Of a stretch of DNA of 61,470 nt, positions 3,656 through 58,697 are shown one piece after another. Positions within the stretch are counted from its first letter, which is position 1. Every line of letters begins with the position of its first letter. Origin of the DNA: a virus; IMG/VR virus record IMGVR_UViG_3300037755_000302. One strand, given 5' to 3'. Below the pieces are notes generated by a model. It was not told where the DNA came from, searched no databases, and saw nothing but the letters and a program-made list of their open reading frames with translations. The position numbers and the translations under genes were made by a program.

Positions 3656-3737
3656 GATTGGCTCCTTGAACGAATGGCGGCGTCTTCGTCAGGCATCATG
3701 TTTTTGCGTGAATATTCACGCTCCCTTGTTGGTGAAC

Positions 3738-7322: not shown

Positions 7323-8278
7323 GCGTCCTCCCGCGGTCTCGGCATGAATTCGGGAACGTCGCTGTCCCGCGAACGCGTCGACGACGTTTCCGGCTCATCG
7401 TCGAACCGACCTTCGTGAAGCCAGGTCGACGGGTGCGGGCAGAAGTTTTCGTTCGGCCCGCGGATCTGGGCTTTCAGGGCTGGAAGCTGTTTTTTCAGGG
7501 CAACGTATGCCCGCCGCTTCTGGGCAAGATTGAGCTTGCGCCACGCCCTGAACGCCGCGGCCTTGCCGGTGCGGCGAGGATAGACCTTCCAGAATTCCTC
7601 GAAGTCGTACGGGTACTCGTCCGGGATGTCGTCCCGTTTGCGTTTTCGCTTTTCAGGCTCGTCCCCAGGGGGGACTATAGGGGGGTTATTTATTTTATTA
7701 TTTTCTATTCCTTTTACTGTCGTCCGGTTTGCCATATCTGGTTTTTCCGGTTGTGGTAAAGTTACAACATGCGGGTTTTCAGGACGTGGCAAAACTCCTT
7801 GATGAGCAACGGTTTCTTTAGCGTGCTCGTTTACAACATCCGGGTTTCCGGGTTGTTGTGCGTTTACAACAGACGGGTTTTCCGGACATGGTGTGAAGTT
7901 CGTTTCAATCGCGTAGATCTCTTCGGCGGCTGCCTTGATCAGCGCTTCCGGATCGTCGCTGACGTGGTAGACCTTCCGGCCAAGCTTGCCGTCATCCGTG
8001 CGCTGGCGATCCTGCGGCTGGATATAGCCGTATTCCTCGGCCTCCTTGATCATCCGGTAAACCTTGTCGCGGCCGGCTTTGCCAGATGCGATGATGCTCT
8101 GGACAGTCACTTCCCAATCGTCTGGGAGGCTGAGCAGACGCGCGACAAGCCCGCGGGTCTCGTCCGAGATGCGGCGGTCTTGCAGGAAGGCATTGCGCAG
8201 CTTCGTGTAGCCACGCTCGCCGTGTGCGCGGAATATGCAGCGGGAGGGGCTTGCGTTGTGTCCGATAGTTGCCAACAT
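7319..8278 (-). CDS. replication initiator (lambda O-like / DnaD-like winged-helix protein)
   Basis: N-terminal GYTKLRNAFLQD...LLSLPDDWEV wHTH-like region and C-terminal FEEFWKVYPRRTGKAAAFRAW. Sits immediately upstream of dnaB and contains iterons. Confidence 0.65.
   Translation of the reverse strand: MLATIGHNASPSRCIFRAHGERGYTKLRNAFLQDRRISDETRGLVARLLSLPDDWEVTVQSIIASGKAGRDKVYRMIKEAEEYGYIQPQDRQRTDDGKLGRKVYHVSDDPEALIKAAAEEIYAIETNFTPCPENPSVVNAQQPGNPDVVNEHAKETVAHQGVLPRPENPHVVTLPQPEKPDMANRTTVKGIENNKINNPPIVPPGDEPEKRKRKRDDIPDEYPYDFEEFWKVYPRRTGKAAAFRAWRKLNLAQKRRAYVALKKQLPALKAQIRGPNENFCPHPSTWLHEGRFDDEPETSSTRSRDSDVPEFMPRPREDA
7761..7887. repeat. three iteron-like repeats GTT(T)ACAACA-NN-CGGGTTT(T)C, candidate replication origin inside the initiator gene
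   Basis: Copies at 7761-7785, 7829-7852 and 7862-7887. They encode the repeated peptides ENPxVV(N/T). Confidence 0.55.
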
Positions 8279-8763
8279 CAGCGCGCTCCCTTCCTGCTAT
8301 TGCAGGGGCGGCAGAGCGTCTGATAGTTCGACAATTCAGATGCCCCGCCTTTCTTTTCAGAAAGGATGTGATCAACCGTTAAATCGTCAGGACTGCCGCA
8401 TTTTACGCAGGCGTAGCCATCCTTATCGAACACGGTTTCGCGATCTGAGGCGTCAATTACCGCCTTTATCAGAGGTCTCTTCCCGCCCCAGATGCGCTCA
8501 GTGACTTTTCCAAGTTTGAAATAGTCGTCGAAGCCAACCGTTCTGATAATGTCATCAGCCGCTCGGGAGTGGCGCTTGTAAGTCGATGGAGACACGCTAG
8601 CCAGCGCCATCTGATCTTCTGGGTGAAGACGCCCCTTACCCCCAGCCATAGCGTGGCGAATCCGTATCACTGCCAACAGCTTTACGGGAATTGGCGCTTG
8701 AATATCGAAAACGCGATTGAACACCTGATATGCGCTATTATGCCCCTGTCCCGGTGTGTTCAT
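8278..8763 (-). CDS. HNH endonuclease domain protein
   Basis: C-terminal CVKCGSPDDLTVDHILSEKKGG...NYQTLCRPCNSRKG. Confidence 0.8.
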   Translation of the reverse strand: MNTPGQGHNSAYQVFNRVFDIQAPIPVKLLAVIRIRHAMAGGKGRLHPEDQMALASVSPSTYKRHSRAADDIIRTVGFDDYFKLGKVTERIWGGKRPLIKAVIDASDRETVFDKDGYACVKCGSPDDLTVDHILSEKKGGASELSNYQTLCRPCNSRKGAR

Positions 8764-12645: not shown

Positions 12646-13449
12646 TTAGAAGCGGTAGTTCAGGCCAGCCTTGATGATCTGAAGTTCGAGATCAGGATGG
12701 AAATTGTCCGTGGCGTGATCACCGGAATAGCGGTAATCAACTTCGCCGAGGTCGATGTAGAGATACTCACCGACGAGGCTGACGCTCTCGGTCAGTTTCC
12801 ATTCCAGACCGCCACCGACTGTCCAGCCAATGTGATTTTCATCAGCGCTGGCGAAGGACGCCGATTCCGTGACCTTGCCGACATCGTGGATGGAGTTGAC
12901 GGAAGACTCGACCATCGCCCAAGCCAGACCGCCGGTCGCATACGCCAGAAGGCTCGGCTGAACCAGATAGCCAGCACGAAGGCGAGCGGTGCCGAAATAT
13001 TCGATTTCTGTAGTGGCGTCCCAGACCGGATTTCCTTTATTGTCAGGGTCCAGTCCGACAGGATAAGGAACGAAACGCTCAGTGCTGCTCAGGTCGCCGT
13101 AAGCTACGTCAATGACGCCGCCGAGAACGACATTGCCGAACTGCTTATCAGCGCCAAAACCTATGCCGCCGAACCAGTCCTCGTCACCAATGTTCTGACT
13201 GGAGCCGTCAAAGGTGATCGCCGGGTATTTCTTCGCGTCGTCATACGAGAACGGTCCATCCCAATCGGCCCATGCCCATCCGCCGAAAACGCCGAAGTGC
13301 AATCCGGTCCAGTCTGCCGACGTGTGCACGGGCTGGTCAGCGCTCTGATCAAGGACGCCATCCAGAAGGTCCGAAGCGTTTGCAGATGCAGCCAGAGCGA
13401 AAAAACTCGCGGCGAGGATCGGAACTGTGTTGATTTTGAGACGTGTCAT
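12646..13449 (-). CDS. outer-membrane beta-barrel protein, Omp25/Omp31 (OMP_b-brl) type, with signal peptide
   Basis: Signal peptide ILAASFFALAASANA, alternating beta-strand pattern, and C-terminal ...IKAGLNYRF ending in aromatic Phe. Confidence 0.8.
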   Translation of the reverse strand: MTRLKINTVPILAASFFALAASANASDLLDGVLDQSADQPVHTSADWTGLHFGVFGGWAWADWDGPFSYDDAKKYPAITFDGSSQNIGDEDWFGGIGFGADKQFGNVVLGGVIDVAYGDLSSTERFVPYPVGLDPDNKGNPVWDATTEIEYFGTARLRAGYLVQPSLLAYATGGLAWAMVESSVNSIHDVGKVTESASFASADENHIGWTVGGGLEWKLTESVSLVGEYLYIDLGEVDYRYSGDHATDNFHPDLELQIIKAGLNYRF

Positions 13450-13540: not shown

Positions 13541-13738
13541 TCAGGCGGATGTGCCTGCCTTCCGCCATTTCTGTTTCGGAGATTTAAGAGCCTGCAACCG
13601 CGCGTTCACCGGCATCCTCGCCAGTTCCGTTTCAACGTCCCGCTCAAGCCGGATTATGTTTCCAGCCTCGTCTTCATAGGCGATAGAGGGGTTTCCGTTG
13701 ACGATGACGCGCTTTGCGTTTGGGGGGAGCTTTTTCAT
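13541..13738 (-). CDS. hypothetical protein, 65 aa
   Basis: 4-nt overlap with the upstream HNH gene. Confidence 0.55.
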   Translation of the reverse strand: MKKLPPNAKRVIVNGNPSIAYEDEAGNIIRLERDVETELARMPVNARLQALKSPKQKWRKAGTSA

Positions 13739-14133
13739 GCTGCCATCCCGACCGCGCGTTTGATGCGCTTCTCAGCCCGCTCTATACGGGTGTTAAGACG
13801 ACGGCGAACCCATGCGGCGGTGATGCCGGTGTCGCCAAGCGGAATATCGTTCTGATGCAGGATGCGGCGGAACCAGGCTGGCGAGCCGTTCGACTTCGCG
13901 GCATTGCAGGCAAAGCACGCGGCCTTGATGTTCTCTCGGACAGTCTGGCCGCCCTTCGAGCGCGGCGTCAGATGCTCGGCAGTGGCGACGGTCATCCGCT
14001 CCTTGCAGTAGACGCAACGGGATTTCTGCTCGATCTTGGCGTCGGAGCGCAGCATCTTGAGGAACATGCGCTCGGTCGCAGCCATGCGGTGCGGCGTGGC
14101 GTGGACGTGCTTGGAAGAGGTCTTTGCTCTCAT
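13735..14133 (-). CDS. HNH endonuclease
   Basis: CVYCKERMTVATAEHLTPRSKGG...AACFACNAAKSN. Confidence 0.8.
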   Translation of the reverse strand: MRAKTSSKHVHATPHRMAATERMFLKMLRSDAKIEQKSRCVYCKERMTVATAEHLTPRSKGGQTVRENIKAACFACNAAKSNGSPAWFRRILHQNDIPLGDTGITAAWVRRRLNTRIERAEKRIKRAVGMAA

Positions 14134-14324
14134 GCTGCGAGCCTCCGGCGCTTTTTGCGCGGACCGCGAAGCTCATGCAGAGCGTTATAGACAGCCGCTT
14201 CAGTCGCCCCCATGATCGACTTGATTTCGCCAGTGTCCTTGCCTTCGTTCCATAGGCGGAGAGCTTCTTCGCGCTCGCTGCTGTGGAGCAGGGTTTTCAG
14301 GTTGGATAGACGCCGGTCGGTCAT
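14130..14324 (-). CDS. small HTH protein resembling the GcrA N-terminal DNA-binding domain (64 aa from ATG 14324)
   Basis: SEREEALRLWNEGKDTGEIKSIMGATEAAVYNALHELRG followed by a basic tail. ATGA overlap with the upstream ORF. The ORF-track start (TTG 14402) is rejected. Confidence 0.55.
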   Translation of the reverse strand: MTDRRLSNLKTLLHSSEREEALRLWNEGKDTGEIKSIMGATEAAVYNALHELRGPRKKRRRLAA

Positions 14325-14560
14325 GCCGCCCTCTTCATCGGAAGTTTGTCGCGAGACACAGGCGGGCAGCCGGAATACGCCAGAGCGCTGTGAAAGCTGC
14401 AATATGAGCTTCCCGACACTCTGTCGTGGCCGCAGAATTTATGGGGCGGCTCGCCCGTAACCGGCCAGCGGCACATCTGCTCAGTGAGATCGAGCAACGG
14501 GATCATCAGCGGAGCCGGAGCGCCATCGGCGATTTGCTTTTTCGGTTTCCATCCAGCCAT
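14321..14560 (-). CDS. GcrA C-terminal-domain-like protein (79 aa from ATG 14560)
   Basis: LLDLTEQMCRWPVTGEPPHKFCGHDRVSGSSYCSFHSALAY matches the conserved GcrA C-terminal signature as I remember it. The upstream 100 codons of the ORF-track form look non-coding. Confidence 0.6.
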   Translation of the reverse strand: MAGWKPKKQIADGAPAPLMIPLLDLTEQMCRWPVTGEPPHKFCGHDRVSGSSYCSFHSALAYSGCPPVSRDKLPMKRAA

Positions 14561-14580: not shown

Positions 14581-14611
14581 GGTCCCCGACCGATGGGGGC
14601 AGTCGGGGACC
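14581..14611. promoter_or_regulatory. perfect 10-bp-stem hairpin GGTCCCCGAC-(11 nt)-GTCGGGGACC
   Basis: Read directly from the sequence. Located in the 218-bp gap between the HNH gene and the GcrA-like pair, with no clear U-tract. Confidence 0.5.
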
Positions 14612-14777
14612 TAGGGCACACTGAGAGGGAGAGGAATGGTCACGAAAGGAACAAGCCGAAACTTGAAAGCATTCGATGTCCAACCCCTTTACGCTACGCT
14701 TACTGCCGGCGACGCGGAACATGCCGGGACACAACCAAACGCCACGCGAACGAGGGAGGTACGCAGGGTTACAACTC

Positions 14778-15314
14778 TTAGGCGGTAGCCAAACACTGCC
14801 TCGCCTTGCGAATGACCTCTTGGTAGTAGTGCCAAGAGAAGGTTTCCTTCCTCGGGTCATTCGGATTCAGGTAATCAAAATCTATGCCAATGGGTGCGAA
14901 CCAGTACATTTGGTTAATCGGAGCAACGCCGGAAACGAGTGCACTGATAAGACGCGAATTCCGTCCGTACTTTTCCATGTGTCCCGGCTGTTTCAGGAAA
15001 TCCCAAACGCCGATAACTCGCATCCAGTTCAGTTTCTTCTTGTAACGATCGACCGCATTGTCGAACGCAGTGCCGAGAAACAGATGAAACGGGTTCACAC
15101 ACCTTTTGTTGTCACAGTCATGGCAGACGAAAATGCCTTCTGGGATCGGTCCCCAATGCATAGTCCATGAAAACCTGTGAGCAAGATGACTGCGAAACTG
15201 ACCATATTCTGAGGCCTCGCCCAGTTTTTTCCAGTTCCAGCAACCAGTCTCAGGATCGATTTCCATCCTTGACTTGAAGTCGTCCTGTATGTTCTGCGCG
15301 GTCTGCATCGTCAT
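14778..15314 (-). CDS. HNH-family homing-endonuclease-like protein
   Basis: CWNWK...HRFSWTMHWGPIPEGIFVCHDCDNKRCVNPFHLFLGT..DN. Visibly AT-richer than the flanks. Confidence 0.75.
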   Translation of the reverse strand: MTMQTAQNIQDDFKSRMEIDPETGCWNWKKLGEASEYGQFRSHLAHRFSWTMHWGPIPEGIFVCHDCDNKRCVNPFHLFLGTAFDNAVDRYKKKLNWMRVIGVWDFLKQPGHMEKYGRNSRLISALVSGVAPINQMYWFAPIGIDFDYLNPNDPRKETFSWHYYQEVIRKARQCLATA

Positions 15315-15316
15315 TC

Positions 15317-15562
15317 CTAAGCGGCTGCGCCCTCATGCTGGCGAATAGGCCTGTCAGAGCTGCGCGCCATCAAATTCGCGTTGTAGATCTGATCGACGGA
15401 GACCTTCGCCAGCGTCATGATCAGATCCCAGTACTCATCCGGTATGCCGTTCTTGTTCCACTTGTAGATGGCCCAATGCGTCCGCCCGACTTTCTTCGAA
15501 AGCTCTACGGGTCCGCCGCAACGCTGGACAATCTGCTGGCATGTGAGAATGTGATTTGACAT
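15317..15562 (-). CDS. Cro-like DNA-binding protein
   Basis: 81 aa, divergent from the repressor gene. HTH-like ELSKKVGRTHWAIYKWNKNGIP. Confidence 0.7.
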   Translation of the reverse strand: MSNHILTCQQIVQRCGGPVELSKKVGRTHWAIYKWNKNGIPDEYWDLIMTLAKVSVDQIYNANLMARSSDRPIRQHEGAAA

Positions 15563-15570
15563 TTCATGGC

Positions 15571-15600
15571 ATTATATTGGACTATAATTCCAAAGATCAA
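15571..15600 (-). promoter_or_regulatory. PR-like sigma70 promoter for the cro-like gene (TTGATC-18 nt-TATAAT)
   Basis: The -10 is a perfect TATAAT ending 8 nt before the cro ATG, implying a near-leaderless mRNA. The operator 15577-15593 lies in the spacer. Confidence 0.5.
15577..15593. promoter_or_regulatory. operator-like palindrome TTGGA-N7-TCCAA (copy 1)
   Basis: The same half-sites and 7-nt spacing recur at 16343-16359 and 16383-16399. Confidence 0.55.
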
Positions 15601-15648
15601 GCGTTTTTTTCCAGTGCCCTGCCTGTGATCTCCATTATTGTGGAAATC

Positions 15649-16308
15649 ATGAGATGGCATGAACGCATGGTAAGATTGATGAACGAGAGGGGGTGGTCAC
15701 AGACAGTGCTCGCCGAGCGCTCTGGCATCCCCTATCACCAGATAACGAAATACGCGCGCGGCGCTGTGGATCAGCCGCGCGGGAACACTATAAGTAAAAT
15801 TGCTGAAGCTCTGGATGTATCAGAACAGTTTCTGATCTTTGGGGTTGATAACGCAGATAAATTATTCAATTATGACAAGTTGCCCAATGTAGAAGAAAGC
15901 TTGCGCGTCCCGAAAGTTACACTGAAAGACCTGTCTAATTATAAAGCGGGACACGATATTCTAAGCATCTGGTCTGGGGACATGAGCACACCAATCGATC
16001 GGGCGCATAGCGCGTCCTGTTTTACCGTCGATGTTGATGATAACAGCATGCTGCCGCAATTCTCGGTTGGCGACACCTTGCTTTGTGACCCGGAAGCCAC
16101 AATAGAACCAGGCGATTACGTCCTTGCCATCGCAAATGGCAGCGATAAGGCCGTATTCAGGAAGTATCGCCTTGCGAAGGCCGCTGGCAACGGCACACCG
16201 AGGATCGAGCTTCGCCCCCTGAATGCCGATTACCCCATTGACCTGATCGACACCGACCACCCCGGACGGATCATCTGTCGCTGCATGGCGGTCATCAAGA
16301 ACCTGTAG
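15649..16308 (+). CDS. CI-type repressor (XRE HTH plus S24 LexA-like autopeptidase)
   Basis: HTH GWSQTVLAERSGIPYHQITKYARG. S24 motifs DDNSMLPQFSVGD (Ser) and VFRKYRL (Lys). The start may be ATG 15649 or ATG 15667. Confidence 0.85.
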   Translation: MRWHERMVRLMNERGWSQTVLAERSGIPYHQITKYARGAVDQPRGNTISKIAEALDVSEQFLIFGVDNADKLFNYDKLPNVEESLRVPKVTLKDLSNYKAGHDILSIWSGDMSTPIDRAHSASCFTVDVDDNSMLPQFSVGDTLLCDPEATIEPGDYVLAIANGSDKAVFRKYRLAKAAGNGTPRIELRPLNADYPIDLIDTDHPGRIICRCMAVIKNL

Positions 16309-16399: not shown

Positions 16400-16491
16400 T
16401 TCATCAGCCGCCCCCAATCGGCTGAACCGCAAACCCCGGACCTCGCCCCTGAAGCTTGGTCCGGGTCCAAAGAGCAAAAGGGTCAAACGCC

Positions 16492-17118
16492 GTGGAATTC
16501 AAAATCACAAATCGATTTACCGGCTCAGTGATCTTCACGGCTAAAATCGAAGCCACCGAAGATACGCCGATCAGCATCAAATTAGGCTTGGCAGTGAAGA
16601 AGGCTGTTGAAGCGCGTGCCTACCTCGCGGATGCCAACCTCGCGGATGCCAACCTCGCGGGTGCCAACCTCGCGGGTGCCTACCTCGCGGGTGCCAACCT
16701 CGCGGGTGCCAACCTCGAGGATGCCAACCTCGCGGGTGCCAACCTCGCGGGTGCCTACCTCGCGGATGCCAACCTCGCGGATGCCAACCTCGCGGGTGCC
16801 TACCTCGCGGGTGCCAAAGACATTCCCGATTTCACCATGCCAGACGGCCTGAAGTTCAGCCAGTACAAGCGCGAAGTTGTTCCCGCACTGCTGACCGCTG
16901 GCGGCAAGACGCTGGATGAGATCAAGGAGTCCGGTTGTTGGGATTGCCACGACTGGACCAACTGCCCGATGGCGCACGCTTTCAACGTCAGGACGATTGA
17001 AGAAATCCCGCCGCTGTATCGGGCGCGGGCGAAGGAATTCATTCAGTTTTTTGATAGTCGCTTGCTGCCTGCTCCGTGGGCAGATGGAAGCGTTGAATCA
17101 GAGCCTGCACCGGAATAA
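16492..17118 (+). CDS. pentapeptide-repeat protein (208 aa from GTG 16492; the ORF track starts at TTG 16456)
   Basis: 13 consecutive A(N/Y)LA(D/G) pentapeptides, N-terminal [14 protein letters not shown] and a Cys/His C-terminal domain ([17 protein letters not shown]). Confidence 0.85.
16618..16812 (+). repeat. tandem 15-bp repeat, 13 units (GCC-WAC-CTC-GCG-GRT), in-frame within the pentapeptide gene
   Basis: Units differ only at 1-2 positions: aac/tac, ggt/gat, and one gag. Confidence 0.9.
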
Positions 17119-27838: not shown

Positions 27839-28203
27839 GTGACGCACCGCTAACGCTTGCCGACAGCGAGTTTCTTCTCACGGAAACGGAGGCGGCCGAG
27901 ATGATGAGGATCTCGACACGCTACCTGCGCACCTGCGAGATCCCCACTGTTCGCTTCGGACGCAGAAAGCTATACGATCCGAAGGATCTGGTAGCGTTCA
28001 AGGACAAGATGAAATGCCCACCCCATACAAGCGAAAAAACAAAGACGGATCGACCTCGAAAGTCTGGTCGGTTGATATCTGGATCAACGGTCGTAAGTTT
28101 TCAAGAAGCACTGGCAAACGAACCAAGCGCGACGCCGAAGCCGAAGTCCCGCGCATCCGAGACGAAATCAAGGCGGAGCTCAAAAGAGAAAGCCTCGGCA
28201 TAG
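27835..28203 (+). CDS. xis: excisionase-type HTH DNA-binding protein
   Basis: LLTETEAAEMMRISTRYLRTCEIPTVRFGRRKLYDPKDLVAF, immediately upstream of int. The 3' 190 nt overlap int in another frame. Confidence 0.6.
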   Translation: MSDAPLTLADSEFLLTETEAAEMMRISTRYLRTCEIPTVRFGRRKLYDPKDLVAFKDKMKCPPHTSEKTKTDRPRKSGRLISGSTVVSFQEALANEPSATPKPKSRASETKSRRSSKEKASA

Positions 28204-29120
28204 CGCGACTGACGATCGATACGCTGATGGGAACGTGGTGGCAGGAGCATGCCCAACATTTGGCGTCAGCGCAACGGCAAGTGAAATATCTGGTTAAATC
28301 CTTGCTTTCCGAAATGCCCGGCGATTTGCCGCTCGAAGAGCTCAGCAACAAATACATCGCTGGCTATGTGTCAGCCCGGCGACGGTCCGGAAAAAAACCG
28401 GCTACAATCTGCCGCGAGCTCGACTGCCTTGAGAGCGCCTACCATATGGCGCGGGATTCGTGGGAACATCCGGTCAAGCCGATTGACTGGAAGAAACATA
28501 GGCCACACAGGCCGGAAAGACAGATCGAGAAGCATCTCGGAGTCTCACCGGCGCTTGATGTCATCCAATGGTTGCGGGATCACCGCGCCGAACATATCGC
28601 GCGAGCGGTTGCATGGTCGATCTACACCGGCATCCGCCTGGCCGGAACGCGTAACCTCATGTGGGAGCATGTCAGCCTGCAGGAGCGGTGGGCGCGAGTG
28701 AAGATCAAGCGCAAGCCCGGACAGATGGAAGAGCGCTGGCGACAAAAACTGCTGTCGCTGCACGCAATGGCTCTGCTGATGGAAATTGGCCCGAAGAAGG
28801 AAGGGCCGGTGTTCGACCTCACCAACCGGGTGAAGCACTGGAATGCAGCGCGCAAGGCGATCGGTCGGCAGGAAGTGACGTGGCACGGATTGAGACACAC
28901 GCATGCGTCATGGTTGCGCAAGAACGCGGAGGGAATAGAGGTGGTGCAGCGATCGCTCAACCATTCGAACATTTCGACGACGATGATTTATGCGCACGTC
29001 GAAGATGTCGAGCTCGTGACCGCTTTGGACAAGCTGCCGCCACTTTGGGACCACGGCGGAAACATACTGGCATTTCCACCAGCGCATGCCACCAGCACCA
29101 AGAAATCATCGGCACAATGA
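28014..29120 (+). CDS. int: tyrosine recombinase / phage integrase
   Basis: Conserved R (YTGIRLAG), HxxR (WHGLRHTHASWL) and catalytic Y (ISTTMIYAHV). 368 aa. Confidence 0.9.
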   Translation: MPTPYKRKNKDGSTSKVWSVDIWINGRKFSRSTGKRTKRDAEAEVPRIRDEIKAELKRESLGIARLTIDTLMGTWWQEHAQHLASAQRQVKYLVKSLLSEMPGDLPLEELSNKYIAGYVSARRRSGKKPATICRELDCLESAYHMARDSWEHPVKPIDWKKHRPHRPERQIEKHLGVSPALDVIQWLRDHRAEHIARAVAWSIYTGIRLAGTRNLMWEHVSLQERWARVKIKRKPGQMEERWRQKLLSLHAMALLMEIGPKKEGPVFDLTNRVKHWNAARKAIGRQEVTWHGLRHTHASWLRKNAEGIEVVQRSLNHSNISTTMIYAHVEDVELVTALDKLPPLWDHGGNILAFPPAHATSTKKSSAQ

Positions 29121-30390: not shown

Positions 30391-30477
30391 TCATTTCAAC
30401 AGACTGAACACCTTCGCCAGCACGAAGAACAGCCCCGAGACAACAGCCAAGGACGCTATGGCGAAATCCAGCCACAT
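30391..30477 (-). CDS. 28-aa hydrophobic peptide
   Basis: MWLDFAIASLAVVSGLFFVLAKVFSLLK. Its ATG is 2 nt after the stop of the upstream gene. Confidence 0.35.
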   Translation of the reverse strand: MWLDFAIASLAVVSGLFFVLAKVFSLLK

Positions 30478-30479
30478 GA

Positions 30480-30812
30480 TCACCCGGTCGCGACCTTTAC
30501 CGCCTCGGCTACGCTCATGATCCCCGTTCCTGCGAGAATGATCGCGATCAGCACCCGGATGAGGATAGCCAAGTCCAGCGCCTGCAAAAGGCTCATGGAT
30601 GACCCGCCCTTGCCCTGCTCCAATCGCGAGAGCCGGGCGAGGATGTCCCGCCTGTAATATCGGGTCTCTTGCCGTTGCAGGTCTTGATCGGCTCTCAGCG
30701 TTGCGATCTGAAGCGTCAGCGACTGGTTCATGTCTGCTATGCGCCGGTCGATATCGCGTAGGATCTGCAAGTCTGTCATGGCCATTTGCCCGGCTCTCCG
30801 CCATATATTCAC
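30480..30812 (-). CDS. coiled-coil protein with C-terminal transmembrane helix, up to 110 aa
   Basis: Ends ...LDLAILIRVLIAIILAGTGIM. Alternative starts at M10 or M12. The competing 143-aa frame (30391..30822) is Arg/Pro-rich and is rejected. Confidence 0.5.
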   Translation of the reverse strand: MNIWRRAGQMAMTDLQILRDIDRRIADMNQSLTLQIATLRADQDLQRQETRYYRRDILARLSRLEQGKGGSSMSLLQALDLAILIRVLIAIILAGTGIMSVAEAVKVATG

Positions 30813-34013: not shown

Positions 34014-34589
34014 ATGGCTACCCCACGTTTATGCTCAGTTGAAGGCTGTGACAAGCGCCATTCCGGTCACGGATACTGCGGTATGCACCTGCAGCGCGTT
34101 CGGCGTCACGGCGATCCTAATGCTCACCCAAGCAATCGAGGTGAGCCAATGAAATTCATTTTAGGTGTAGCGCTACCATTCAAGCGAGATGAATGCCTTG
34201 AATGGCCATTCTGCAAAAATTTCGGGTATGGCATAGTGCGCCATGAAGGAAGATCCACAGGATCTCATCGACTGGTGTGCGAGCTCGCACACGGCCCCGC
34301 TCCACACCCAAAAGCCGAAGCTGCTCACTCATGCGGAAACCGCATCTGCTGCAACCCACATCATTTGCGCTGGGCCACCCGCATAGAAAACCAAGCGGAC
34401 AGGCTTCAGCATGGAACCCACAACCGAGGATCTAAGCAAGGCCAGTCGAAACTGACTGAAGAAGATGTTCGCAAAATCAGAGCGCTAAGAGGTTCCATGA
34501 CGGAACGAGAGATTGCGAAACTTTTCGATATCGGCCGACGACACGTCAACGACATTCACCGCAGAGTTTGCTGGTCTTGGTTGGATTAA
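34014..34589 (+). CDS. HNH-family homing-endonuclease-like protein
   Basis: CSVEGCDKRHSGHGYCGMHLQR...SHRLVCEL...AAHSCGNRICCNPHHLRWAT..EN. On the opposite strand to the flanking late genes. Confidence 0.75.
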   Translation: MATPRLCSVEGCDKRHSGHGYCGMHLQRVRRHGDPNAHPSNRGEPMKFILGVALPFKRDECLEWPFCKNFGYGIVRHEGRSTGSHRLVCELAHGPAPHPKAEAAHSCGNRICCNPHHLRWATRIENQADRLQHGTHNRGSKQGQSKLTEEDVRKIRALRGSMTEREIAKLFDIGRRHVNDIHRRVCWSWLD

Positions 34590-52403: not shown

Positions 52404-53588
52404 TTACGAGCTGGCAACGGCTGCGACGAAACCTGTCACCATGCCGTTATCGTACTGCGTGCCGGACGTGCCGTCCTTGCGCATGACCTTGTTGGCCCCT
52501 GCCATTTCGGAGATGCCGATGCCAGTGAACTGGCCGTAGTCATCTTCCTTCTTGGCGCGGAACTCGGGCATATTGCCCCAACCGGTGCTAACCGCCTGAC
52601 AGCCGCACAGGAAAACCGGTGCGATGTCGATCGGAGTGGTGCCAGCGCCCTGGCCTTCCATGACCGGGATTTCCGGGATTTCGCGAATGATCACGCCATC
52701 CCAGATCAGATCGCCGTCCTGGAAGATCGGGTTCTTGTCCATGCCGCTGGCTTCACGGGCGCGAGCCTCGCGATTGGCCTGGCGGATGGTCGAGTCCGTC
52801 TTCAGGTCGCGGAACGGGCGGGAACCACAGAACAGCACGAAATACTCGCGGCCATTCTCGGAATACTGATCGAGGACCGGGCGAATGGCGGGCGTGCCGT
52901 TCGTGCGGGCGTTCGTGGCAGTATCCTTAGCGATTTCCTTGAGCAGTGAGACGAGATCGGCATCCAGCTTGTCGGCTGTGTTGTCGATGTTCGCCGTCGC
53001 GGTCGCAAAGGTTGAACTATAGTTCGACTTTGCTGACCCGAACAGAACACGGTCAACGTTGTTCGTGACCCACGTGTCCTTCTGGGCCGTGCTTGCCGCA
53101 ACGTTCTCCTTGAAGTTCAGGGGATCGAAGAACGTCGAGCACTGCGGAGCACCGGACGAGGAATAGGCGACCGTACCGAGCGCATCGATGATGCGGTCAC
53201 GCAGAAGCACACGGGACCATTCCTGAAGCAACGGGCGAACCGCTTCGCGAGCATTGGAGAAATCATAATGCTCGTCCTGCTCGGAAAGCTCAACGCCGTG
53301 GCGGGCGATCTGCACCGCTACGCTGTGGCTGTGCTTGCCGAGCTGTTCTTCCTGACCGGACAATCGCGTATTGCCGCGAACGCCGCCGCCGCTCAGGGCG
53401 GAGACCAGCGGGATCGTCAAAGACTTGCCGCTGGTTGTCATCTCGTAAGCAGTGTGAATGATGGACTTGATGCCCTCATTTCCACCGCCCATGTAAGGCA
53501 TGAAGCCGGACTGACGGACATATTCCCGCCAGTATTCGCGCCGATACCTGATCTCAATGAGATCTGTCGGCGTGGTTGTCGTAGCCAT
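52404..53588 (-). CDS. major capsid protein (HK97 fold), 394 aa
   Basis: Follows the scaffold gene. The N-terminal region IRYRREYWREYVRQSGFMPYMG is like N4-gp56-type coats, from memory. Confidence 0.75.
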   Translation of the reverse strand: MATTTTPTDLIEIRYRREYWREYVRQSGFMPYMGGGNEGIKSIIHTAYEMTTSGKSLTIPLVSALSGGGVRGNTRLSGQEEQLGKHSHSVAVQIARHGVELSEQDEHYDFSNAREAVRPLLQEWSRVLLRDRIIDALGTVAYSSSGAPQCSTFFDPLNFKENVAASTAQKDTWVTNNVDRVLFGSAKSNYSSTFATATANIDNTADKLDADLVSLLKEIAKDTATNARTNGTPAIRPVLDQYSENGREYFVLFCGSRPFRDLKTDSTIRQANREARAREASGMDKNPIFQDGDLIWDGVIIREIPEIPVMEGQGAGTTPIDIAPVFLCGCQAVSTGWGNMPEFRAKKEDDYGQFTGIGISEMAGANKVMRKDGTSGTQYDNGMVTGFVAAVASS

Positions 53589-54581: not shown

Positions 54582-55097
54582 ATGAAACCTCTTAGAATTG
54601 ATCCAAGAAATAGATTTGAGAGCAAGATCTTTCCTGAACCAAATTCAGGATGCTGGCTTTGGACGGGGTACGTTAAGCCAGACGGCTATGGTAGATTTTC
54701 GTTGAGATGCCGACAAATACCCGCGCACAGATTCTCATATACTCTATATGTTGGTAATATTCCCAATGGGCTGGAAATTGACCACATCTGCAAAGTTAGG
54801 TGCTGTGTTAACCCAAATCATTTGCGACTGGTGACTCGCGAAGAGAACATGGCCTTCCGAACTCAACGATCACATTGTGATAACGGCCATCCATTTAGTG
54901 AGGAAAACACTTATCTAAGGCCAGGGACAAATGGCAGGCAGTGTCGAACTTGCACTAGAATTTGGAATAACTTAAGCGCAAAAAGACGCAGGAGTGCCAA
55001 AGCTAACCGACCCCCGGCCCCATCGGCAATCCCCCAGCCTGATCAAGCTGAGGCTCTTCTCCCGGTATCGCCTGCTGAGGGCCTCCCAAGGCCATAG
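54582..55097 (+). CDS. HNH-family homing-endonuclease-like protein
   Basis: CWLWTG...GYGRF...HRFSYTLYVGNIPNGLEIDHICKVRCCVNPNHLRLVT..EN. AT-rich. Its 3' 95 nt are antisense to the portal 3' end. Confidence 0.75.
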   Translation: MKPLRIDPRNRFESKIFPEPNSGCWLWTGYVKPDGYGRFSLRCRQIPAHRFSYTLYVGNIPNGLEIDHICKVRCCVNPNHLRLVTREENMAFRTQRSHCDNGHPFSEENTYLRPGTNGRQCRTCTRIWNNLSAKRRRSAKANRPPAPSAIPQPDQAEALLPVSPAEGLPRP

Positions 55098-57150
55098 GAG
55101 CGCCTGATGCGCCATCCGGCCCCGGCTGTGGCTGTGGCATCATGGCGTTCTGTGGCGGCTCCTGCTGCTGCATGTCAGCTTCGGCTCCCGCCGTCAGAAG
55201 CAGGCGATCGACGGTTGACGGCTCCCGGTAATGGATCGGGAACACGCCGGATAGAACTTCGGGCGTCAGGCCGATCTCTGCCAACAACTTCAATGCCTCG
55301 GCTCTGGTCTTCTCCGTGCCAGAAATCTGCTCATCAATCTCGGATGCCTTCAGTAGCAGCTCAAGCTTCGCCATCTTTTCTTCCAACGCAACAAGCTGGG
55401 GCGGCGGAGCCTTCGATTCCTGCAGGCGCTTGATGATCACGTCCTTGTCGGGGAGCGTGGACAATTCGAGGATGATCTCAAGCGGCACGTCGGGGCGATC
55501 GGCGATGGCCTGGATCAGTTCCTCGCGCATGGTGATCGTGTCCGGCCCCTGATCGAGCAGGACATCAACATCCATGTCCATCATAGAGTTCTCGACCGTC
55601 ACTTGCCCGGTCGTCGGGTCTTCGATGATCTTGTTGATGTTCAGGAACTCGACGGCTTTCGGGTCGGATGTGATGCGGATATACCGCTCGCCGGTCCAGA
55701 ACTGTTGTGCCAGATCCCAATCCTTGTGGTAGACCGAAAGCTCCCATTCGCGCTTCATCTCGAAGACCGGCGACAGCTCCGTCATGCCGGAATTCTGCTG
55801 CGCAAGGATCGCGCGGCCGGACTGGTTCTCGACGCCGCGCCCGATCAGGCCGGGATTGGGGCCAAGGTTCTCGATCTCGGCCTTGTCCTCCTGCAACAAT
55901 TCGAACTGGCCGGCAGTCTGTGCGCTCTGATCGACGAACTGGAAATCCTCGCCGAGATTGCCGTTGACCTCGATATGGCCGTCCGGCCGCGCGGCTTCCC
56001 GCTTCATCTTGTCAACGTCGGGGACAGCGCCGGTTTTCCCCATCGTCTGGCGCTGGTTCAGCAGATGCAGCATCTTGCTGGAGCGCTTGTTGATACCGTC
56101 CTGAAGCGATATCATGTCTCTCACGACGCCATAGCGAACGCCGGATTCATCAACATAAGGCGACCATGCGTTATAAGGGTGCACGGTCTGCTCGTCTTCA
56201 TTCAGGTACGGCGACTTGCAATCGTAGTCTTCTGGACAAAGGCTGATCGGGCCGGTGAGATAATCAAACATCCAGTCGCCAGCGTATTTATACCAGATGT
56301 GGGTGACGCGGATCAAACGCTTGCGGCTATCCATCCACGTTGATCGGTTGTTGATCTTGGCGAATTCCTGCGGCAATGTGGACATCGCGCCGCTGTTGCC
56401 GACACGGGCAAGCTCGTTGATGGTCTCGGCCGAGAACGGCATCATCTCAATGGCTTGGTCCATGTCGAGCCACTGCCATTCGCCCAGATAGCGGGCGTCG
56501 GAGAAATCCCATGCTTCGGACGCAGGATCGTAGAAGAACCTGTCGGATGGAACGTGAGCCTTGCAGATCTCCGGCTTGTTGCGGCGGATCTTGATGCCCT
56601 GCCAGACAACGCCGATGCCACGAATGAGCGCATCCTTCGTCGCGGCTGACGCCAGTTGCGTCCACTTGGTTTCATCCTCGATGCAGCGCAGCGCCGCGGT
56701 GCTGACATATGCCGCCTTGTCCGCAGCCGGCGTGCGCGGATAGCATTTCGGATCGCGGCGCAACCGCTGCTCGACGCCGACAAGGAAGTCAACCTTGCGC
56801 TTGATGCGGTTCTTGGTGGTCGGCGGCTGCTTGCGGCGCTTCAGCTCGCGCAGTTCAGTGTCAGTCCACTGCTTGCTGTGGTAATAGCGGGAGCACTTGA
56901 ACTGCTCCTCGATCTCGCCGGTCTGCCGCTTGGCGTCTTCCCACGTCTGGTATTTCTTGTCGAGGCTCTCACCGTCGAGACGAGGTGAAAGCTGGGGCGT
57001 CGCCTGCGGCTGCGGCAGGTGCTCAAGCTGGACCTGCCCGCTCATGATGGCCTTCTCGGGCGTGATCATCACTTCATCGGGGGAGATGAAGTTCTCGAAC
57101 GCCTGGCGCGGCTGCATGTCATGGTAGCCGAGCGTCATATCACTCGCCAT
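55003..57150 (-). CDS. portal protein, 715 aa
   Basis: Size and position directly downstream of (and overlapping) terL. P22-class length. Confidence 0.75.
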   Translation of the reverse strand: MASDMTLGYHDMQPRQAFENFISPDEVMITPEKAIMSGQVQLEHLPQPQATPQLSPRLDGESLDKKYQTWEDAKRQTGEIEEQFKCSRYYHSKQWTDTELRELKRRKQPPTTKNRIKRKVDFLVGVEQRLRRDPKCYPRTPAADKAAYVSTAALRCIEDETKWTQLASAATKDALIRGIGVVWQGIKIRRNKPEICKAHVPSDRFFYDPASEAWDFSDARYLGEWQWLDMDQAIEMMPFSAETINELARVGNSGAMSTLPQEFAKINNRSTWMDSRKRLIRVTHIWYKYAGDWMFDYLTGPISLCPEDYDCKSPYLNEDEQTVHPYNAWSPYVDESGVRYGVVRDMISLQDGINKRSSKMLHLLNQRQTMGKTGAVPDVDKMKREAARPDGHIEVNGNLGEDFQFVDQSAQTAGQFELLQEDKAEIENLGPNPGLIGRGVENQSGRAILAQQNSGMTELSPVFEMKREWELSVYHKDWDLAQQFWTGERYIRITSDPKAVEFLNINKIIEDPTTGQVTVENSMMDMDVDVLLDQGPDTITMREELIQAIADRPDVPLEIILELSTLPDKDVIIKRLQESKAPPPQLVALEEKMAKLELLLKASEIDEQISGTEKTRAEALKLLAEIGLTPEVLSGVFPIHYREPSTVDRLLLTAGAEADMQQQEPPQNAMMPQPQPGPDGASGAPMALGGPQQAIPGEEPQLDQAGGLPMGPGVG

Positions 57151-58697
57151 TCATCTGCGCTTTCGCTGTCATCGGTGCTTCGATAATCTCCGAGGTTCTC
57201 TGGCTCCGGCGCAACGGGGATGAAAACCTCCCGATGCGCACAGGCGAGCGTTCGTTCTGCATCAGCGCCGTGACTTGCCTCGTTATGCAAAGGCTCGTTC
57301 ATCCATGCGCTGGTTTGATCGTTCCATTTCTTCTTGTAGTTCTTTAGTTGCGCTATGCCTGTTGCGCAGCCCTCGACATCGAATGTCGATGTTTTTAGGA
57401 CTTCCCGAACAGCGTTGATGCCATCTGCTAGGCTCATGGCCGTGGGAATGCGAGGCTTCATGCCTTCCTTGTAGGCTTGCTCGATGCGCGTCTTGCCAGT
57501 GCCCCATTCCTTGACCTTGCCATCATGGGGAAACCAGTCGAAGCTGTCCTCATTCCTGAGCCAGCCGTGCCTATCGAATTGCTCTTTGCAATAGGCCGCG
57601 TAGAAAGGCATGCCTTCGCCGCAGTTCTGGTAATAGTGCAGATGCCGGATTTCACCAGGGAGGAACTGCCCAAACCAGATACTGTGATAGTCGCCAACGC
57701 CAATGTCATGAAAGGTCTGGACTGGCCAGCCCACAGCGGCTTCAAACTTGCCGACGCCGCCACGCCTCTCGACGGCCGACATATGCTTGCCGTAGTAGCT
57801 ACCATCGACTGCTGCGGCAAAAGCCTCGTCCGGGTGAGCTGGGTATTCCCGGCCCATGTCGTCTTCTTGCGTATCCTTGGTGACAGACCACCACGCTTTT
57901 TGCCCGTCATTCAGGACGATGCCATGCTCGCGTTCGAGCACGTCGAAATGCTTCTGAGCCTCATCCGTGATTGGAACGCCAGTCGGATCAATCCAGCAGT
58001 TAGGATCTTCATGCCAGCCGTAGAAATGGAACTTGTAATCGATGCTGGAGAGCGGAGACGCCTTGCGCTTCTGCGCTCTGGCCTTCTCCGTCATCTTGTA
58101 GAACTGGCCGTCCTGACCTTCGGCAGTGCTCTCAATGAACACGAACTGGCCGGCCTTGACGGTGTTGAGTGAGCCGGTGACGATCTCGCGCGCCTTGTCA
58201 GGGAACTTCGCGCAAGTCTTGCCGAACTCGGACACATGCAGGTATTGCAGCGTCCCGCCGCGCATTGATGTTCCGACACGGAGCACGCTATTGTTGCTCA
58301 ATGCCAGCTCGTTGGCGCTGTCCCTGATCGTTGGACGCTGTGCCTTCAGCGCTTCGGGCAACCAGTCGTAAGGCGTCTTGATCTTATCCTGAAAGATCGC
58401 CTTGGCCGTGTCGCGGTCTTGAGCTATCGTGCCGCAACGCATGTTCGAGTTGAACAGCACGAGATCGAGGAACACGAGCTGAATGAATGTCGTGAAGCCG
58501 ATCTGCCGTGACTTCAGGATGATATTGCGGTGATGCCACTCTTCCATAAGGCGCTGCTGCGCCCAATTCGGCTCGAAGCGGATCTTGTTGCCGTCGCGGT
58601 CCAGTATCCAGTAGAGATTGCATAAGCGCCAGTTGCGGTCGGCAAGATCGCGCTTAAACTGGCCGATAGCTTCAGACGAGGCTAGAGCCGTCGCCAT
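57135..58697 (-). CDS. terL: terminase large subunit
   Basis: N-terminal NWAQQRLMEE...ILKSRQIGFTTF (Walker-A-like region) and a C-terminal nuclease region. 520 aa. Confidence 0.85.
   Translation of the reverse strand: MATALASSEAIGQFKRDLADRNWRLCNLYWILDRDGNKIRFEPNWAQQRLMEEWHHRNIILKSRQIGFTTFIQLVFLDLVLFNSNMRCGTIAQDRDTAKAIFQDKIKTPYDWLPEALKAQRPTIRDSANELALSNNSVLRVGTSMRGGTLQYLHVSEFGKTCAKFPDKAREIVTGSLNTVKAGQFVFIESTAEGQDGQFYKMTEKARAQKRKASPLSSIDYKFHFYGWHEDPNCWIDPTGVPITDEAQKHFDVLEREHGIVLNDGQKAWWSVTKDTQEDDMGREYPAHPDEAFAAAVDGSYYGKHMSAVERRGGVGKFEAAVGWPVQTFHDIGVGDYHSIWFGQFLPGEIRHLHYYQNCGEGMPFYAAYCKEQFDRHGWLRNEDSFDWFPHDGKVKEWGTGKTRIEQAYKEGMKPRIPTAMSLADGINAVREVLKTSTFDVEGCATGIAQLKNYKKKWNDQTSAWMNEPLHNEASHGADAERTLACAHREVFIPVAPEPENLGDYRSTDDSESADEWRVI

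Follow-up and report, generated by a model that had tools for sequence, protein, structure and literature searches.

Few bacterial activators both ride on sigma70 and read DNA methylation; GcrA is one of them. GcrA's C-terminal domain binds sigma70 by itself, and GcrA lacking its N-terminal domain is still found at sigma70 promoters in vivo (PMC4647560). In vitro, GcrA without its DNA-binding domain (DBD) makes open-complex formation slightly faster (Wu et al. 2018, PMC5887438), a residual activity ascribed to a C-terminal basic patch on the non-template discriminator DNA (PMC9976885). GcrA homologues also occur in phages, and a part in diverting the transcription or replicative state of the host has been suggested for them, as for gp222 of phiCbK (PMC3556154). 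Here we describe two adjoining genes in a viral DNA of 61,470 nucleotides, IMG/VR record IMGVR_UViG_3300037755_000302, which from this point on will be called the window. One, ORF A, encodes the sigma70-interacting domain (SID) of GcrA alone; the next, ORF B, encodes a small helix-turn-helix (HTH) protein. The original prediction had read the pair as a single gcrA gene split into two pieces, with the C-terminal piece first. Phage copies of GcrA have been noted before and, to our knowledge, never dissected. A search of the literature, incomplete in coverage, returned no paper that describes SID-only forms in nature or the modular gene slot in which this one is found.

A GcrA sigma70-interacting domain encoded alone

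Both ORFs are present on the minus strand as claimed (coordinates in Table 1), and their junction, GCGGCATGA, is a 4-nucleotide ATGA overlap. ORF A scores 46.7 bits against the Pfam GcrA family (PF07750, cut-off 26.9), with only profile positions 96-146 of 155 matched, and aligns to positions 107-151 of 173 in the NCBIfam model sig70cofacGcrA (NF050816), where its score falls under the equivalog cut-off, as expected for a single domain. Searched with phmmer against PDB sequences, it matches the Caulobacter GcrA chains 5yix_B and 7ye1_G. An AlphaFold model computed from 36 sequences has a mean predicted local distance difference test score (pLDDT) of 84.9, rising to 94-97 in the core. Foldseek searches of the PDB with this model return 5yix_B, 7ye2_G and 7ye1_G only (probability 0.99-1.00, root-mean-square deviation 1.7-1.9 Å), the match to 5yix_B having probability 1.00 and 1.7 Å over 45 columns; beyond these GcrA SID structures, probabilities drop to 0.01. 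Family models, PDB sequences and fold therefore agree with the original assignment of ORF A to GcrA's C-terminal domain.

Residue equivalences were taken from the phmmer alignment of ORF A to PDB GcrA and the numbering of Wu et al. 2018 (PMC5887438). The CCCH zinc ligands C30, C43, C54 and H57 of ORF A correspond to C118, C133, C143 and H146 of GcrA. Of five contact residues at which alanine substitutions affected the sigma70 two-hybrid interaction of Caulobacter GcrA (PMC5887438), four are kept, as W32, F42, Y53 and Y62 (W120, F132, Y142 and Y151 in GcrA), and the fifth, F130, is H40. The tail carries four basic residues, R70, K72, K76 and R77. Homology to full-length phage GcrA begins at about residue 8, and a tblastn search of the whole window revealed no GcrA DBD anywhere. 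The N-terminal domain and most of the linker are gone from ORF A, leaving the zinc-bound SID and a short basic tail, so that the description of a free, almost linker-less module without a DBD is borne out. Sequence and fold show ORF A to be a natural DBD-less GcrA.

The SID-only form recurs. An exhaustive phmmer scan collected 1904 relatives at E<=0.001, and DBDs were called with a DBD-only hidden Markov model (HMM) on the best 150 of their 50%-identity cluster representatives. Of these, 127 have a DBD, 22 lack one (64-110 amino acids, aa) and the remaining one is a protein of 5330 aa. All but one of the 22 DBD-less proteins start with Met, the exception with Val. The 5330-aa protein (P0037), an unexpected home for the module, contains seven separate SID-like stretches and no DBD by the HMM. 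Across the SID-only set, L25, C30, C43, G44, G50 and C54 are invariant, and P33, F42, Y53 and H57 are nearly so.

The genomic setting of such genes was compared in loci designated by L-numbers; for ORF B, the comparison was anchored on its homologues in metagenomic and viral contigs. In the locus scans, broad SID alignments were too divergent and a narrower alignment worked; ORF A as a single query gave no match among viral contigs. All five SID-only contexts inspected are phage-like. To illustrate, the SID-only gene of L025/L026 (75 aa) is accompanied by cro and a cI-like gene, L023 has a 110-aa gene for linker and SID followed by an ORF B-like gene, and the SID-only gene of L024 adjoins RusA. 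Synteny in the deeply diverged L027/L028 runs through cI, cro, HNH_3, a SID-only gene (78 aa), a small ORF, an outer-membrane protein (OMP) gene and a 390-aa homologue, with no ORF B.

Compared with L028, the neighbouring proteins of the window have 27-38% identity and the SID-only protein has 46%, the best conserved of the five proteins matched, with a common MA(G)W..K start. This contrast, together with the residue conservation, speaks against decay and for a SID-only form that is under selection. The SID-only protein of L025 starts with MDEN, like the HTH gene of the L007 type described below, and meets the SID at ...KPLMIPLL, unlike the junction in the window. Such differing junctions, along with the longer linker of L023, point to independent origins. 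In L033 (1979..2698, 239 aa) and L034 (2141..2710, 189 aa), two HTH-like N-terminal segments, seen by eye in the translations, precede the SID; these may represent further domain shuffling in the GcrA family.

Outside these loci, the GenBank phages gave no match to the two-ORF region by blastn or to ORF B by tblastn, and tblastn with ORF A found distant matches only, mostly to full-length GcrA genes.

ORF B and the exchangeable slot ahead of it

The proposal of a split and permuted gcrA fails on comparison with related loci, in which ORF B is found next to a complete GcrA or with no SID at all (L007-9, L013, L014, L019/20), and a SID-only gene is found with no ORF B (L028). Complete GcrA genes of 166-176 aa stand directly upstream of the ORF B homologue in L004/L005/L012, L010, L011 and L018, and overlap it by the same 4 nucleotides. 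Their products have a canonical N-terminal HTH (e.g. WTEERVKVLTEMWAEGLSASMIGAKIGMSRNAVIGKRIRLGL) and, after a linker, a SID that shares 55-69% identity with ORF A. The gene upstream in L013 encodes a GcrA DBD fused to a second HTH and no SID, as does that in L006, where one more gene intervenes. In L007-L009 and L017 it encodes the second HTH alone (59/86 aa in L007-L009), and at 100% identity the ORF B proteins of L007-L009 and of the window do not differ. Farther relatives of ORF B come after a methyltransferase or a cro-like gene. The slot ahead of ORF B is thus shown to hold, across phages, a full-length GcrA, a DBD with the second HTH, the second HTH alone, or the SID alone. The DBD-only slot genes are natural counterparts of the SID-only form. 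The genes with the DBD and second HTH (motif W-x3-SIAQALG), or with that HTH alone, were located at 3669..3998 in L013, 401..712 in L006 and 4744..5004 in L007.

Surveyed across related phages, then, the two pieces are not obligate partners, ORF B is present beside an intact GcrA, and their combinations mark them as independent modules that happen to adjoin. The two genes stand side by side because the mosaic slot borders on ORF B. The ATGA overlap that the original prediction pointed out joins three successive gene pairs, recurring at the ORF B/HNH and HNH/65-aa ORF junctions (GCAGCATGA); since it is repeated along the operon, it provides no evidence of a split gene. All three junctions are GC(A/G)GCATGA overlaps (13735..14560, minus strand; also gene ends in L004-L023), and most early proteins of this phage group end in ...AA. 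Homology breakpoints fall at such junctions, for instance at window position 14333 against L007/L008, so the junctions may be recombination points for module exchange.

ORF B belongs to a small phage family of its own. A single-sequence search found 7 relatives and a profile search 47, all of them stand-alone proteins of 49-118 aa. The precomputed Pfam annotation of these 47 includes no GcrA domain and a weak HTH_23 in two. The family signature, LW-EG-DT--IA----TEAAVYN-L (W-x2-G-x-D-T-x2-I-A ... E-A-A-V-Y-N-x-L), is set apart by its invariant DT..I and E...YN. The model of ORF B is a three-helix bundle (pLDDT 75.8; helices 15-26, 31-38 and 42-52).

Searches with ORF B lead to generic HTHs. At E<=1 ORF B has no match to Pfam GcrA, its best Pfam match being HTH_40 at 13.7 bits, and it has none to the NCBIfam GcrA model. 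Among 39 family members, the Pfam matches are HTH_40 (23), HTH_23 (21), Sigma70_r4_2 (20), HTH_29 (15), GerE (12) and Terminase_5 (8), and GcrA is not among the 25 Pfam families commonest for these members. The family profile, searched against PDB sequences, finds a CRISPR-repeat-binding HTH (2lvs), resolvase HTH, extracytoplasmic-function sigma region 4, GerE and small terminases, and does not return GcrA at E<=10. Pentatricopeptide-repeat matches in the PDB were discarded as summed sub-threshold repeats. Foldseek lists resolvase, LuxR/GerE, sigma region 4, Mu Mor and small terminase, none below E=0.001, with the GcrA DBD outside the top 50 matches. In Pfam, PDB-sequence and fold searches, generic HTHs therefore largely score better for ORF B than GcrA does.

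Profile comparisons nevertheless give a weak similarity to GcrA-type DBDs. Aligned with hhalign to 110 GcrA N-termini, the ORF B family reaches 94.7% probability (E=6e-8, 44 columns) in the register that the original prediction had drawn by eye, and the DBD-only HMM gives ORF B 17.4 bits. In single-sequence controls, a small set, three of four GcrA DBDs reach 35-59% and one 0.2%; a LuxR-type HTH, two cro proteins, a cI HTH and a second phage HTH reach 0.3-9%. Both ORFs match the profile phrog_16311, ORF A over positions 104-144 and ORF B over 9-52 (E=0.02). A remote, perhaps preferential, kinship of ORF B to the GcrA-type HTH is possible on these alignments. Of the proposal that ORF B is the N-terminal HTH of GcrA, the three-helix HTH and the alignment register hold up, and a match to the GcrA family models does not. 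The residues of the GcrA methyl-adenine pocket, R33, N34, I37 and G38 (PMC5887438), align to E42, A43, Y46 and N47 of ORF B, so that all four are replaced and ORF B cannot read DNA as GcrA does. The 39-member family shows no variation at E42 and N47 and almost none at Y46, and A43 is nearly invariant in a closer set. Rather than the missing half of GcrA, ORF B is a small HTH regulator in its own right, which this group of phages conserves.

The first slot gene, whatever its product, is preceded in eight loci by a GC-rich hairpin and CGGAAYGARGACG-ATG. In the window and the leaders aligned with it (L004, L007, L008, L010, L011, L013, L018 and L025), the hairpin lies about 20 nucleotides upstream of the start codon, and RNAalifold gives 11 pairs, four with compensatory changes; the structure is kept and the stem sequence is not. 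There is no U tract after the hairpin, which is therefore not a classical terminator; roles in termination, processing or translational control are possible. The last ~70 nucleotides before the ATG are kept in all slot variants, and the start codon of ORF A is at the position, behind the leader, that is used by the full-length GcrA of relatives. With the leader hairpin, Shine-Dalgarno-like box and ATG kept across slot variants, ORF A looks to be expressed.

DNA identity between the window and its relatives is 79.5% over cI and cro (L004) and 78% over the HNH_3 gene (L010). Identity with L004/L010 resumes at 14539, codon 8 of ORF A, and continues through ORF B at 71-72%. Between the HNH_3 gene and this breakpoint, ~250 bp in the window stand for ~587 bp in L010, a stretch that holds the leader and the first ~103 GcrA codons. 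Truncation of gcrA by insertion of the HNH_3 gene is ruled out by L010, which has a 76% identical HNH_3 homologue together with full-length GcrA. An in-frame linker remnant upstream of the ATG, seen as a tblastn extension, was also rejected, as composition-adjusted BLASTP confines homology to residues 8-79. As to a deletion between short MAAPK/EAAPK repeats versus fusion to an L007-type 5' end, the junction is too diverged to choose.

The early operon and its phage

In the cro (PR) early operon, ORF A comes third and ORF B fourth. On the minus strand, its order is cro, HNH_3, ORF A, ORF B, second HNH, 65-aa ORF and OMP moron, with a C5 methylase, a third HNH gene, a DnaB helicase and an AAA ATPase farther along. 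No promoter-like site was found between the HNH_3 gene and ORF A, the sole one being upstream of cro. The cro protein is 86% identical to that of L004. The second HNH gene fills the place taken in relatives by a small ORF and an N6-adenine methyltransferase gene; the latter (N6_N4_Mtase) is found there, two genes after ORF B, in L004, L006, L010 and L013. A tblastn search of the whole window found no homologue of the N6-adenine methyltransferase.

Table 1. Features of the window (positions are those of the 61,470-nucleotide stretch)
Feature	Position	Strand	Remarks
ORF A	14321..14560	minus	79 aa, ATG start; GcrA SID and short basic tail
ORF B	14130..14324	minus	64 aa; three-helix HTH and basic C-terminal tail
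Leader hairpin	14582..14612	minus	10-bp stem GGTCCCCGAC/GTCGGGGACC, 11-nucleotide loop, then CGGAACGAAACG and the ORF A ATG
HNH_3 homing-endonuclease gene	14778..15314	minus	between cro and ORF A; Pfam E=2e-12; phrog_1872
cro-like gene	15317..15562	minus	first in early operon; weak P22_Cro and YdaS matches; phrog_8008
PR-like sigma70 promoter match	15571..15600	minus	TTGATC-18-TATAAT, 10/12; upstream of cro
cI-type repressor (HTH_3 + Peptidase_S24)	15556..16308	plus, divergent	Pfam; phrog_4
Second HNH endonuclease gene	13735..14133	minus	Pfam HNH; ATGA overlap with ORF B
Outer-membrane beta-barrel moron (OMP_b-brl)	12646..13449	minus	267 aa; inside early operon
Integrase	28014..29120		ERF and YqaJ recombination genes close by
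Major head protein	52404..53588	minus	
Portal	55003..57150	minus	
Large terminase	57135..58697	minus	
Head-closure protein, tail-spike-like gene		minus	right-half structural module

At least three HNH endonuclease genes lie in the early operon, the two in Table 1 and one at 8278..8763. Weaker HNH_3-like stretches found by tblastn in the late region (54615..54869 and 34263..34421) perhaps add two more. The OMP moron is found at the same place in L004, L008 and L028. Alphaproteobacteria, among them Devosia, Rhizobium, Microvirga and Methylocystis, supply most of its homologues, and those borne on plasmids have ~30% identity; from these and the taxonomic range of GcrA, we infer an alphaproteobacterial host. 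Neither the ORF B profile nor the large terminase gave a match when reference genomes were scanned.

As a whole, the window represents a temperate phage, a complete genome or contig and not a prophage between stretches of host DNA. NCBIfam models gave no match for ten large ORFs at 35.7-58.7 kb. On the lysogeny side, a pentapeptide-repeat protein of 220 aa (16456..17118, plus strand) is encoded directly downstream of cI. A tRNA-Asn at 30404..30482 (minus strand), ~1.3 kb past the integrase, is possibly phage-borne or part of an attachment region. Relatives have a Tad3-family gene beside cI (L027/L028, 528..881) and insertions of the IS605 OrfB/TnpB type in the early region (L006 3143..4252; L007 2067..3224).

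Proposed function of the SID-only protein and comparison with known systems

Our preferred reading, which we hold to be more likely than not, is that ORF A is a DBD-less GcrA acting on the GcrA site of sigma70, and that ORF B is independent of it, the two being brought together at a mosaic slot. Made early from PR, ORF A would occupy the GcrA site on domain 2 of the primary sigma factor in the host and displace or pre-empt host GcrA. The sigma70 holoenzyme would thereby be uncoupled from methylation-guided promoter choice, and the tail of ORF A may keep a weak, sequence-independent boost to open-complex formation. Binding to sigma70 and competition with host GcrA are what we infer from the conserved residues; a free SID that acts on sigma70 or competes with host GcrA is the most plausible function. 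The net effect could be antagonism or mild activation.

Several observations weigh against this reading. F130 of GcrA is replaced by H40 in ORF A, the loop bearing G129 is three residues shorter, and the L028 homologue has Tyr and Val for W120 and P121; sigma70 binding is thus not assured. The His at the F130 position is also present in two full-length GcrA relatives, P0008 and the protein of L018. In addition, a look-up found the exact ORF A protein sequence unrecorded elsewhere, and a word-index protein search with ORF A gave zero candidates, so that this variant could be a recent accident. The absence of the N6-adenine methyltransferase also fits decay of a GcrA/methylase module.

These last points are shared with the view that ORF A is a non-functional remnant, left when deletion or mosaic recombination took the 5' two-thirds of gcrA, its frame open by chance and retained only as a spacer for translational coupling to ORF B. 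That the variant is unique in databases, that ~250 bp ahead of the breakpoint stand for ~587 bp in L010, that the methyltransferase partner was lost too, and that the operon is rich in HNH genes with mosaic breakpoints at gene borders are all in keeping with it. We nevertheless regard it as rather unlikely. Leader and start codon are conserved and undamaged, ORF A has every zinc ligand and the majority of the contact residues, and SID-only forms with differing junctions and conserved functional residues occur in several phage lineages, the one in the window being the best conserved of the five proteins compared with L028. A functional ORF A might instead be a positive, promoter-unspecific sigma70 cofactor for phage genes, in the manner of RbpA or Crl, whose basic tail stabilises open complexes, and not an antagonist of host GcrA. 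The slight acceleration by DBD-less GcrA through its basic patch (PMC5887438, PMC9976885), the four basic residues of the ORF A tail and the place of ORF A early in the operon, ahead of replication and late genes, are consistent with such a role. The residual activity reported in vitro is weak, however, and beside the Caulobacter patch the ORF A tail is short and has less basic character. We hold this reading to be distinctly improbable. Sequence data alone cannot separate it from competition with host GcrA, and both may hold together.

A permuted split gene would have been the more surprising outcome, with ORF B on DNA and ORF A on sigma70 as a two-piece activator, and the claim fails; we give it very little credence. 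Its best arguments are the hhalign alignment in the proposed register, the DBD-only HMM score, the controls in which three of four GcrA DBDs outscore the other HTHs, the phrog_16311 profile matched by both ORFs, and the order seen in the window, L023 and L025, three loci in which an ORF B-like HTH comes after a DBD-less GcrA. Against these stand ORF B genes that come after complete GcrA genes with a DBD of their own, and an identical ORF B that follows a non-GcrA gene and hence has not co-evolved with a SID partner. The SID-only gene of L028 has no ORF B, none of the 47 ORF B relatives has a GcrA domain in the Pfam annotation, and GcrA is missing from the Pfam, PDB-profile and Foldseek match lists of ORF B. 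The methyl-adenine pocket is replaced, and the ATGA overlap is generic in the operon.

Beyond the preferred reading of ORF A as a DBD-less GcrA on sigma70, we tentatively offer a bolder one, which we hold to be doubtful. SID-only proteins could be an unrecognised, recurrent class of phage early proteins that dock on domain 2 of the alphaproteobacterial primary sigma factor and block host GcrA, and that arise by repeated domain shuffling in a hypervariable slot; HTHs of the ORF B type would perhaps be ancient offshoots of the GcrA DBD and may cooperate with them. If this is true, methylation-guided cell-cycle transcription would be switched off during infection or induction. SID-only proteins that bind sigma70 would be ready-made antagonists or cofactors, of possible use in probing GcrA-dependent cell-cycle control and phage takeover in Alphaproteobacteria.

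Among known systems, T4 AsiA (reviewed in PMC7403470) is likewise a small phage protein that binds the host primary sigma factor and thereby redirects transcription, although the likeness to ORF A is an analogy of mechanism only: AsiA-type repressors act on sigma region 4 and have no homology to ORF A, whereas the GcrA SID contacts sigma domain 2. ORF B shares a common three-helix architecture, with weak matches, with the HTH_23, HTH_40, Sigma70_r4_2, GerE/LuxR, resolvase and small-terminase HTHs; none of these generic matches reaches a curated cut-off. Full-length phage GcrA proteins, such as phiCbK gp222 (PMC3556154), QIG68249 of Rhizobium phage RHph_Y1_10 and AUZ95457 of Agrobacterium phage Atu_ph08, are of the same family as ORF A and carry DBD, linker and SID in one chain, where ORF A has the SID only. 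Another close counterpart is GcrA of Caulobacter crescentus (173 aa; 5YIX, 5YIV, 7YE1/7YE2), with which ORF A shares the SID fold, the CCCH zinc site, most sigma70-contact residues and a basic C-terminal tail. ORF A differs in having no DBD, in having ~12 residues before the SID in place of a ~60-residue linker, in the His for F130 and the shortened G129 loop, and in its zinc spacing, C-X12-C-X10-C-X2-H as against C-X14-C-X9-C-X2-H. Natural phage truncations mirror those made in the laboratory, with SID alone, DBD alone and full length found in one exchangeable early slot among related temperate phages. Like the engineered GcrA-deltaN and GcrA-deltaDBD, which bind sigma70, reach promoters and weakly aid opening, ORF A consists of what remains when the DBD is removed, and is a natural, phage-encoded version of them.

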